Sequence record: OR979723.1
Origin: Escherichia phage ETEP102
Reading direction: 5' to 3' (one strand)
Length of the DNA: 48,422 nt
Positions 6,817 through 7,578 of the stretch are shown here, piece by piece. The position numbers and the translations under genes are program-made. The notes under the pieces were generated by a model. It had not been told where the DNA came from. It searched no databases and saw only the letters and a list, made by a program, of their open reading frames with translations. The first letter of the stretch is position 1, and each line of letters opens with the position of its first letter.

Positions 6817-6978
6817 ACTCAAAAAGCTCATTGACAGCCATCTCACTGACTGGTATCTTTAATCACGTACACAAGAGGCTACCAAGTAGCAACGAGCGGT
6901 TCGTAAGCCGCATGTGCAGTGAAGCAAATCGAGGCATTGTGAAAGCCTTACGGATTCCGTAACCGTAACTCATTCAAA

Positions 6979-7053
6979 GCTCCGCTAGCTCAATTGGATA
7001 GCAGCAACGACCTTCTAAGTCGTATGTTACTGGTTCGAATCCAGTGCAGAGCG
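6979..7053 (+). tRNA. tRNA-Arg (anticodon TCT), encoded CCA follows at 7054-7056
   Basis: Hand-folded cloverleaf: acceptor 6979-6985/7046-7052 (one C-A mismatch), D-loop with GG, anticodon stem 7007-7011/7019-7023, loop CTTCTAA, T-loop TTCGAAT. Confidence 0.75.
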
Positions 7054-7060
7054 CCAATTT

Positions 7061-7159
7061 CTCGGCGTTGCTAATATTGGCCTTAGGGTGGAGCTTATAC
7101 CTCCATAAAGCAATCGACAGATAATCGATGTAATGCAGGTTCGATTCCTGCCGCCGAGA
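7061..7159 (+). tRNA. atypical 99-nt tRNA-like gene, anticodon TAT (Ile, AUA) if folded canonically
   Basis: Perfect 7-bp acceptor 7061-7067/7152-7158, T-arm GCAGG-TTCGATT-CCTGC, encoded CCA 7160-7162, anticodon stem-loop TGGAG-CTTATAC-CTCCA; 29-nt region between anticodon and T arms with its own hairpin. Confidence 0.4.
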
Positions 7160-7177
7160 CCAATAACGAGGTTTGAT

Positions 7178-7357
7178 ATGTTCAAAGTCAAGCTGACGAT
7201 ATTGCTGATGGGCCGCACGTGCGCATCATGTAAACAGAACTTTGAGACAACCGTTCAGGCATTAAATGCCGAGGAAGCAGTTTCAAAGGCAAAGAAAATG
7301 AGCGGAGTCGATACGACGACTCACAAATTTTTAGTTAATTATGTAAGTGGTATATAA
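7178..7357 (+). CDS. hypothetical protein (59 aa)
   Basis: ATG 7178 with ACGAGG upstream; MFKVKLTILLMGRTCASCKQNF... Confidence 0.4.
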   Translation: MFKVKLTILLMGRTCASCKQNFETTVQALNAEEAVSKAKKMSGVDTTTHKFLVNYVSGI

Positions 7358-7578
7358 TGCTGACGTTTGTTTATGGTTTCTTGTTCGCTTCCGTCCTTAT
7401 CGTTTCGATGTCGTGCGCTTGGGATTCTCGGATTGTTAAGCGCGGGTTTCTTGCTCAGGCGCGATACGATGAGAAGAAAAAAGAGTGGCGCGTAGCCTGC
7501 AAGTTCATCTCAGTATTCAAAGAGATCGACGACATCCGATCGGGGCGGAAGCCTGGGGCCATAAAATACGTTGACTGA
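7357..7578 (+). CDS. putative membrane protein (73 aa)
   Basis: Hydrophobic N-terminus FVYGFLFASVLIVSMS; TAATG overlap. Confidence 0.4.
   Translation: MLTFVYGFLFASVLIVSMSCAWDSRIVKRGFLAQARYDEKKKEWRVACKFISVFKEIDDIRSGRKPGAIKYVD

Follow-up and report, generated by a model that had tools for sequence, protein, structure and literature searches.

Escherichia phage ETEP102, a T1-like coliphage of the Drexlerviridae, carries directly downstream of a tRNA-Arg(UCU) gene a second transfer RNA (tRNA)-like gene that departs from the usual cloverleaf. It lies on the + strand of the 48,422-nucleotide (nt) stretch of DNA analysed here (OR979723.1; the window) and, together with its homologues, almost certainly represents a real, selected family of tRNA-like genes with twin arms, one hairpin having a UAU anticodon loop and the other a loop of the isoleucine GAU type. 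Taken as a whole, the data are in our view best explained by a twin-arm family of phages and mobile elements that may well serve the decoding of AUA, with the identity and the decoding functions of a tRNA split between the arms. A sequence-only reading of the window had proposed an atypical tRNA-like gene with the anticodon TAT at 7061-7159, and comparative analysis bears this out: 86 homologues keep four helices through compensatory changes, and homologues match the Rfam tRNA model over their full length with 41-63 bits.

A tRNA core with two anticodon-type hairpins

Members of the family are built in the order acceptor stem, 5' strand of the D stem (D5), D loop, a first module consisting of a D-stem 3' strand (D3a), base N26 and an anticodon stem-loop with UAU (hairpin 1), a second module consisting of another D-stem 3' strand (D3b), base N26 and an anticodon stem-loop with YAGAUAA (hairpin 2), a loop of 4-6 nt, the T arm, and A73; total length varies from 94 to 102 nt. 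The window copy holds every one of these modules in register (Table 1), and as a single sequence it has a more stable predicted fold than its shuffles (z = -2.65). The perfect acceptor stem, the consensus T arm, and the TAT hairpin with U33 and A37 that the sequence-only reading had described are all present, as is the encoded CCA, which lies at 7160-7162, three bases past the end that had been assigned to the gene. The same reading had noted a 29-nt segment with its own hairpin between the anticodon and T arms. This stretch, 7106-7134 between hairpin 1 and the T arm, does contain hairpin 2, but it is not a generic variable arm, as it consists of a second D-stem 3' strand and an anticodon-arm module with an invariant isoleucine-type loop. 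Three features had gone unremarked: that hairpin 2 has the loop of an isoleucine GAU anticodon except for its A33, that UAU is invariant, and that the D-stem 3' strand is duplicated.

Pairs were counted in a gap-free alignment of 55 sequences from which the parts of variable length had been removed. In these sequences, pairing was found in 100% of cases for the acceptor stem, 94% for hairpin 1, 99% for hairpin 2, and 100% for the T stem, with standard pairs in 94-97% of the pair cells. Every pair of the acceptor stem (7/7), of hairpin 1, and of hairpin 2 showed changes on both sides, and three of the five T-stem pairs covaried. The covariation score was 0.76-0.78, compared to 0.20 for column shuffles and approximately 0.1 for slid partners. 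RNAalifold independently recovered the same four helices and no D stem.

A set of 86 distinct copies was parsed into modules, and all counts out of 86 refer to it. U8, G10, C11, U12, A14, GG, GGTTCRA, and A73 show little or no variation, the discriminator being A73 in 85/86 copies. Position 15-48 (7076 with 7134 in the window; R15-Y48), formed by a purine that follows A14 at a distance of two to three bases and by the base immediately 5' of the T stem, is A-U or G-C in all 86, and by this covariation it is evidently the Levitt pair of an L-shaped tRNA. Judging from these patterns, the acceptor/T branch, the elbow, A73, and CCA are selected as would be expected for an adaptor that can be charged. 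A longer RTTG/TAAY helix joining the D loop to the variable loop was considered and reduced to the Levitt pair, as only its R-Y pair covaries and copies with ATGCT break the rest. A D-loop pairing GCUA/UGGC, predicted by RNAfold from a single sequence, was dropped because it is not conserved in relatives.

The two loops are equally constrained. The hairpin-1 loop is YUUAUAN in 86/86 copies, including those from scans made without a loop constraint. In an unconstrained scan, 54 copies had CAGAUAA as the hairpin-2 loop, 15 had UAGAUAA, and U33 never occurred; we take this loop to be that of E. coli tRNA-Ile1, CUGAUAA, with U33 changed to A. All tRNA-like matches to the pattern AAGC-N6-CAGATAA...GGTTC carry the UAU hairpin, the remaining matches being coding sequence. 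A kissing interaction between UUAU in loop 1 and AUAA in loop 2 is possible but was set aside, since this complementarity is inherent to any pair of isoleucine anticodons.

These data bear on the idea of a functionless pseudogene, whose likeness to a tRNA would be a degenerate remnant or due to chance. ARAGORN reports no gene here, the Rfam score of the window copy is below threshold, and the element is missing in some relatives, all of which would agree with such a remnant. However, its 86 copies are spread over unrelated phage families and bacterial phyla, its helices are kept by compensatory changes, and both of its loops are invariant. The covariation data in effect refute this explanation, which we consider extremely improbable.

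Distribution and mobility of the family

A BLAST search with the 111-nt region as query found homologues in other Drexlerviridae, with 87-98% identity to the window copy, and in Pectobacterium podophage PhiM1 (Autographiviridae), Vibrio phage 12VC501 (Schitoviridae), Vibrio phages WD615 and the 128-kb Pylo/River4, Klebsiella phage KP13-26 (Stephanstirmvirinae), Pectobacterium phages Arno162/Wc4 (Ounavirinae), and Xanthomonas jumbo phage Xoo-sp13. Pattern scans of IMG/VR added at least dozens of further copies. One pattern scan of species-representative bacterial genomes yielded 31 true copies, mostly in the Xanthomonadales (Stenotrophomonas, Luteimonas, Xanthomonas, Lysobacter), and others in Pasteurellaceae, Phycisphaeraceae, and a metagenome-assembled genome (MAG) of Sulfurovum. 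Searches of 5,426 complete E. coli genomes and of the PLSDB plasmids did not find the element, an absence by which an ileZ-type tRNA of Stx prophages was ruled out.

Nearly all copies from proteobacterial phages encode CCA. Some members do not (L232 from IMG/VR; L335 and L343 from Phycisphaeraceae MAGs) and end in ATTC or ATTG, and the family thus extends beyond phages that infect Proteobacteria. In the L232 copy, the loop of hairpin 1 may be 9 nt long, or 31-39 may be a C-U mismatch, with a first D stem that is perfect.

The close Drexlerviridae relatives JulesPiccard and OzMSK are without the element. When window positions 7057-7200 were compared with the corresponding regions of these phages (L353 775-850 and L354 778-855), nucleotides 1-72 of the element were found to be gone, and 'ACCAATAA', which comprises A73-CCA plus a tail, was retained directly after tRNA-Arg. 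The element behaves as a cleanly gained or lost cassette with its boundaries at the acceptor stem.

Copies on Xanthomonadales chromosomes hardly differ from one genus to another. On the chromosome of Stenotrophomonas sp. S11A1a (L336 3291-3390), the element has a phosphopantetheinyl transferase gene on one side and, on the other, an island with genes for a SEC-C protein, KfrA_N, and an OLD-family ATPase/TOPRIM nuclease, which suggests that the Xanthomonadales element marks or travels with a genomic island.

An accessory cassette that is present or precisely absent among close Drexlerviridae, and whose Stenotrophomonas chromosomal copy adjoins an island carrying KfrA and an OLD-family nuclease, might also encode a non-translational tRNA mimic. 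Such an RNA could divert a tRNA-directed defence or toxin of the host as a decoy or sponge, titrate isoleucyl-tRNA synthetase (IleRS) or a modification enzyme, or be an integration target. Its two anticodon loops are bait-like, and according to a suggestion of Mukai et al., most allo-tRNA(UAU) may have no part in translation (PMC5389517). What opposes a mimic is that selection on the acceptor stem, the T loop, the elbow pair, A73, and the CCA of the gene is of the kind expected for a chargeable tRNA compatible with EF-Tu and the ribosome, and that the element is found inside tRNA arrays and paired with tRNA-Arg(UCU), the other classic rare-codon supplement. To our knowledge, there is no anticodon nuclease that targets tRNA-Ile. 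A mimic is improbable on these grounds, and the decoy that the sequence-only reading had listed as an option found no support.

Two possible, mutually exclusive cloverleaves

D3a with a spacer base precedes hairpin 1, D3b with a spacer base precedes hairpin 2, and both fit the single 5' strand GCU(A/U/C/G). Between D5 and D3b, G10-C25, C11-G24, and U12-A23 are paired in 86/86 copies, and the fourth pair, 13-22, is U-A in 34 copies, C-G in 10, G-C in 2, and U-G in 1, the others having an A-purine or A-C mismatch. Between D5 and D3a, 11-24a is C-G and 12-23a is paired, each in 85/86, and 13-22 is U-A in 34, A-U in 19, and C-G in 10; position 10-25a is G-C in 18/86, and G10 stands opposite A or G in 68/86. 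In the subfamily to which the window copy belongs, D3a is always mismatched opposite G10. The Xanthomonadales copies have GCUC as the 5' strand and GAGC at both 3' sites.

Pairing with D3a would give fold 1, possibly a tRNA(UAU) in which hairpin 2 forms an oversized variable arm. Pairing with D3b would give fold 2, possibly a tRNA-Ile(GAU, A33) with a 5-nt variable loop and with hairpin 1 placed in the D loop after G19. The two folds are mutually exclusive. Fold 2 is otherwise a textbook class I tRNA-Ile: the base before D3b is A (A21) in 78/86 copies, A26 is present, the anticodon stem is fully paired (31-39 in 86/86), and the variable loop after hairpin 2 has 5 nt in 76/86. Models with only one fold leave one of the two 3' strands unexplained, namely AAGC if fold 1 alone is formed, and the AG of D3a and the covariation of 13-22a if fold 2 alone is formed. 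Removing either module leaves a plausible tRNA of 73-76 nt, but an intron or excision reading was rejected for lack of a bacterial mechanism or a splice signature.

If fold 1 alone were used, the gene would encode a class-II-like tRNA(UAU), with hairpin 2 as a long variable arm, perhaps a duplication fossil or an enzyme handle. It would be charged by IleRS, or else by leucyl-tRNA synthetase (LeuRS) or seryl-tRNA synthetase (SerRS) through A73 and the long arm, in which case AUA would be recoded. Several members resemble such a tRNA. The homologue L343 aligns full-length with the Rfam model (63.4 bits), hairpin 1 serving as anticodon arm and hairpin 2 as an insert in the variable region, and L168, L336, and L004 also align full-length (41-57.5 bits); the marine/freshwater-type and Xanthomonadales subfamilies have a near-canonical or perfect D arm before hairpin 1, whose loop carries the canonical U33 and A37. 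Precedents are a UAU tRNA with a variable arm that takes Leu (PMC3333845) and allo-tRNA(UAU) (PMC5389517). Fold 1 alone does not explain the invariant AAGC linker, which covaries with position 13 of the D-5' strand, nor the isoleucine anticodon loop found in every member and the 5-nt variable loop that follows it; moreover, unpaired bases (6-7 and 5) stand on either side of the arm, which sets it apart from the arms of Leu, Ser, and Tyr tRNAs. Charging by SerRS is opposed by A73, and charging by LeuRS by the variation of 15-48 between A-U and G-C, as E. coli tRNALeu relies on A15-U48. We regard a class-II-like tRNA as a somewhat unlikely alternative.

If instead fold 2 alone were used, the gene would be a tRNA-Ile(GAU) derivative in which hairpin 1 is an accessory D-loop arm at position 20, serving to bind or bait a protein of the host or of the phage, for example an anticodon nuclease or a modification enzyme. 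The regularity of fold 2 described above, including its D stem at 10-25, 11-24, and 12-23 and its 5-nt loop with Y48, speaks for such a derivative, as does the fact that both the tRNA-Ile(gat) that ARAGORN calls in Xanthomonadales copies and the local Rfam match in the window run through hairpin 2. However, A33 is invariant, contrary to what is seen in anticodon loops that decode, and there is no evident need for such a tRNA in phages that have a normal tRNA-Ile(GAU) and in hosts rich in AUY decoders. The conserved AG and the 13-22a covariation of D3a would have no explanation, nor would the strict UAU with U33 and A37 in hairpin 1. This derivative is clearly less probable than the class-II-like tRNA.

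Possible role in AUA decoding

The sequence-only reading had suggested that the two genes of this locus supply decoders for the rare codons AGA and AUA, and had called for a comparison of codon usage between phage and host. In the 21 longest open reading frames (ORFs) of the window, ATA occurs 8.3 times per 1000 codons (12.8% of Ile) and AGA 7.2 times per 1000. Both values are raised, to about 2-fold (ATA) and 3-fold (AGA) of what we take to be E. coli usage. This use and the genomic context fit the rare-codon idea; the decoding and the charging themselves we infer.

With regard to context, the element is found in tRNA arrays or directly after tRNA-Arg(UCU), and it is the only tRNA in PhiM1. 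Phages with approximately 25 tRNAs carry both the element and a normal tRNA-Ile(GAU), and the element therefore does not duplicate the AUY decoder. As to whether phages with the element lack tRNAIle2(CAU), Arno162 and Pylo both carry a pair of CAT tRNAs, which could be fMet, Met, or Ile2. Because of the adaptor-type selection, the tRNA-array context, the coexistence with tRNA-Ile(GAU), and the use of ATA codons, the element is probably an isoleucine-accepting AUA decoder that acts through its UAU hairpin.

Charging of such a tRNA meets an obstacle, since E. coli IleRS charges tRNAIle(UAU) to about 1% of the LAU form, and 360-fold lower for a synthetic pair (PMC3575796). The isoleucine identity set of E. 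coli comprises the anticodon loop with G34 or L34 and t6A37, A73, U12-A23, C29-G41, and C4-G69 (PMC9976931). Read through hairpin 2 and D3b, the copy in the window presents G34, A35, U36, A37, and A38, together with A73, U12-A23, and C29-G41; G4-C69 is found instead of C4-G69.

In the mechanism that we propose, hairpin 1 would read AUA at the ribosome in fold 1, and no lysidine synthetase would be required. In fold 2, hairpin 2 with its G34 A35 U36 A37 A38, U12-A23, and A73 would be presented to the host IleRS, and the GAU-type arm would sidestep the approximately 100-fold discrimination of IleRS against the UAU anticodon. As a speculation, A33 may bar fold 2 from decoding the abundant AUY codons. 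A split of identity and decoding through two folds is a tentative proposal, and the full scheme, in which one RNA toggles between two cloverleaves, IleRS reads the GAU fold, the UAU fold decodes AUA, and AUA decoding independent of the lysidine synthetase TilS is thereby imported, is more doubtful again.

Several observations weigh against AUA decoding by such a split. Hairpin 2 has C29-G41 in only 48/86 copies, that of the window being one of them, and C4-G69 is not conserved; A33 is without a demonstrated rationale. The nearest-neighbour energies of folds 1 and 2 differ by no more than 1.2 kcal/mol in 58 of 59 sequences, but these energies weigh little, since the D stems of tRNAs rest on tertiary contacts. 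In the window subfamily, fold 1 is poorer than fold 2 because G10 is mismatched and A21 is usually missing. Over the whole family, pair 31-39 of hairpin 1 is unpaired in 35/86 copies. The window copy fails in ARAGORN and is below the Rfam tRNA threshold, and the gene is dispensable, given that JulesPiccard and OzMSK do without it. Finally, a UAU tRNA fails to tell AUA from AUG on E. coli ribosomes, and such misreading of AUG would be a cost (PMC3575796).

Detection by tRNA finders and annotation

Run on the window, ARAGORN called the tRNA-Arg only and nothing for 7061-7162. The Rfam tRNA model gave a local match of 26 bits to the element (7092-7151; threshold 29 bits), in which hairpin 2 was aligned as the anticodon arm. 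The sequence-only reading had named the failure of tRNA predictors to find an acceptable fold as evidence that would count against the gene, and the window copy comes close to that outcome; the comparative evidence outweighs it. The failed calls are not decisive because homologues score well and covary.

Annotation of the family is uneven. Four records label the element tRNA-Ile, with 98-102 nt, and the remaining records are blank or have a hypothetical ORF over it; tRNAscan-based annotations name homologues tRNA-Ile. In BEK6 and ESCO41, hypothetical ORFs are annotated beside or over the region. On family members (among them L003 1635-1727, L336 3321-3393, and L343 6644-6742), ARAGORN was inconsistent, reporting no gene, tRNA-??? 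(tc), tRNA-Ile(gat), or tRNA-Gly(acc); the tRNA-Ile(gat) call in Xanthomonadales copies is a 73-nt internal one. These inconsistent calls, together with annotations that range from none to tRNA-Ile or overlying hypothetical ORFs, constitute a systematic blind spot of tRNA finders. The full-text literature that was searched holds no description of the twin-arm architecture, although subscription journals were mostly outside its coverage and an earlier description is possible. The PhiM1 papers mention only 'a single tRNA-Ile'.

Other irregular calls were seen near family members. A four-base anticodon 'ctaa' reported by ARAGORN next to the element (L037 3445-3520, L331 7487-7562) belongs to an ordinary tRNA-Arg(UCU) with one anticodon-stem mismatch and was rejected as a quadruplet decoder. 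Directly downstream of the element in L039 (7348-7442; also in L015, both IMG/VR contigs), ARAGORN calls a 95-nt tRNA-His(gtg) with good acceptor, D, and T arms and an irregular, over-long middle, and this may be a further non-canonical tRNA of phages. In a viral contig of 176 kb in which the element is likewise present, a 99-nt tRNA-Arg(cct) with an irregular fold is called on the - strand (L027 3645-3743).

Organization of the locus

Two genes on the + strand occupy 6979-7162, with a gap of 4 nt (7057-7060) when measured from the CCA of tRNA-Arg. The tRNA-Arg(TCT) that the sequence-only reading had placed at 6979-7053 is a canonical gene: it is called by ARAGORN and scores 53.7 bits with RF00005 over 6979-7053, and the records of relatives also annotate a tRNA-Arg at the corresponding gene. 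The best match to the region is ESCO41 (genus Nouzillyvirus). A promoter-like candidate is located approximately 120 nt upstream of the tRNA pair, its consensus match being no evidence of function.

An ORF of 60 codons with a GAGG ribosome-binding site and a C-x2-C motif (7179-7358, + strand) starts 17 nt past the CCA of the element. In the Drexlerviridae relatives examined, a coding sequence of similar size is annotated after the tRNA or tRNAs, whether the twin-arm element is present or not.

Table 1 Features of the tRNA locus in the window, with the modules of the twin-arm element in 5' to 3' order
Feature	Position	Strand	Evidence
Promoter-like candidate: TTGACA, 17 nt, TATCTT, with TG	6831-6859	+	Consensus scan only
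tRNA-Arg(UCU), canonical, CCA encoded; anticodon 7014-7016	6979-7056	+	ARAGORN; Rfam RF00005
Twin-arm tRNA-Ile-like gene, 99 nt to discriminator A7159, plus CCA 7160-7162	7061-7162	+	Sequence, homologues, covariation
Acceptor stem, 5' strand CTCGGCG; partner 7152-7158	7061-7067	+	7 perfect pairs
U8 U9 (TT), D-stem 5' strand GCTA (7070-7073), and D loop ATATTGGCCT, which holds A14, R15 (7076), and G18 G19 (7079-7080)	7068-7083	+	Sequence, conserved columns
D3a, first copy of the D-stem 3' strand, TAGG (7084-7087), then G26a	7084-7088	+	Pairs with 7071-7073
Hairpin 1, TGGAG-CTTATAC-CTCCA; anticodon UAU 7096-7098, U33, A37	7089-7105	+	5-bp stem, all pairs covary
Linker TA (A in A21 position), D3b, second copy of the D-stem 3' strand, AAGC (7108-7111), then A26b	7106-7112	+	Sequence, pair counts
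Hairpin 2, ATCGA-CAGATAA-TCGAT; GAT 7120-7122, A33, A37, A38, C29-G41	7113-7129	+	5-bp stem, all pairs covary
Variable loop GTAAT, 5 nt; last base Y48, Levitt partner of 7076	7130-7134	+	Covariation
T arm GCAGG-TTCGATT-CCTGC	7135-7151	+	Pairing, conserved GGTTCRA
Acceptor 3' strand CGCCGAG (7152-7158), discriminator A73 (7159), CCA 7160-7162	7152-7162	+	Sequence

Significance

A tRNA is thought to have one anticodon arm, which serves the ribosome and, for most amino acids, the synthetase as well. If the proposed mechanism is correct, the element would be the first natural case in which these two roles may be split between arms, and it would explain how phages supply AUA decoding without lysidine synthetase despite the discrimination of IleRS against UAU. 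It would also offer a template for orthogonal or recoding tRNAs with the identity arm apart from the decoding arm. Even if a single fold is used, the element would represent a new structural class of tRNA in bacterial viruses with a clear phenotype to test.

Comparison with known systems

With canonical tRNAs (RF00005), the element shares the whole core signature, that is, the 7-bp acceptor stem and 5-bp T stem (7/5 branch), GGTTCRA, U8, A14, G18G19, R15-Y48, A73, and CCA. It does not have the standard cloverleaf of one D stem and one anticodon arm, as there are two candidates for the D-3' strand and two anticodon-type arms, with U33 only in hairpin 1. Hairpin 2 and its flanks reproduce the D-3' strand, A26, anticodon arm, and 5-nt variable loop of tRNA-Ile(GAU), from which the element differs by the interposed UAU arm with its own D-3' strand, by A33 in the GAU loop, and by its length of 94-102 nt.

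Like tRNAIle2, whose CAU is converted to lysidine in a TilS-dependent manner, the element presumably supplies AUA decoding and has tRNA-Arg(UCU) as its usual partner in small phage tRNA sets. Unlike tRNAIle2, it has CAU in neither loop (UAU, GAU), would have no need of lysidine, and does not form a standard cloverleaf.

An extra stem-loop between the anticodon and T arms is also found in the class II tRNAs for Leu, Ser, and Tyr. The variable arm of these tRNAs typically has a short loop and is set close to the core, whereas the arm of the element has 5 bp and an invariant, anticodon-like loop of 7 nt, with long single-stranded flanks of which one duplicates the D-3' strand. Class II identity is not found either: neither anticodon belongs to Leu, Ser, or Tyr, and the discriminator A73, though compatible with Leu or Tyr, does not suit Ser.

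The UAU anticodon for AUA is shared with tRNAIle(UAU) of Mycoplasma mobile. In this organism, which lacks tilS, an altered IleRS (Arg865) solves the charging of UAU, and the tRNA is a normal class I cloverleaf (PMC3575796). The hosts of the element have an IleRS of the E. coli type, and it is the tRNA itself that carries an extra GAU-type arm. UAU combined with a long arm is also seen in the nematode nev-tRNAIle(UAU), a eukaryotic nev-tRNA that accepts Leu (PMC3333845). The allo-tRNAs, among which allo-tRNA(UAU) is abundant, have an acceptor/T branch of 8/4 or 9/3, a D arm like that of tRNASec, and G or U at position 73 (PMC5389517), unlike the 7/5 branch, normal G18G19 D loop, and A73 of the element.

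The use of an anticodon-arm mimic as a pure recognition module for a synthetase has parallels in viral tRNA-like structures and the thrS operator (PMC9976931). These parallels are parts of an mRNA or a genome and not decoding adaptors. We know of no tRNA that has separate anticodon arms for decoding and for identity. In its acceptor, T, and elbow half the element is a tRNA; its anticodon half is arranged in a new way.

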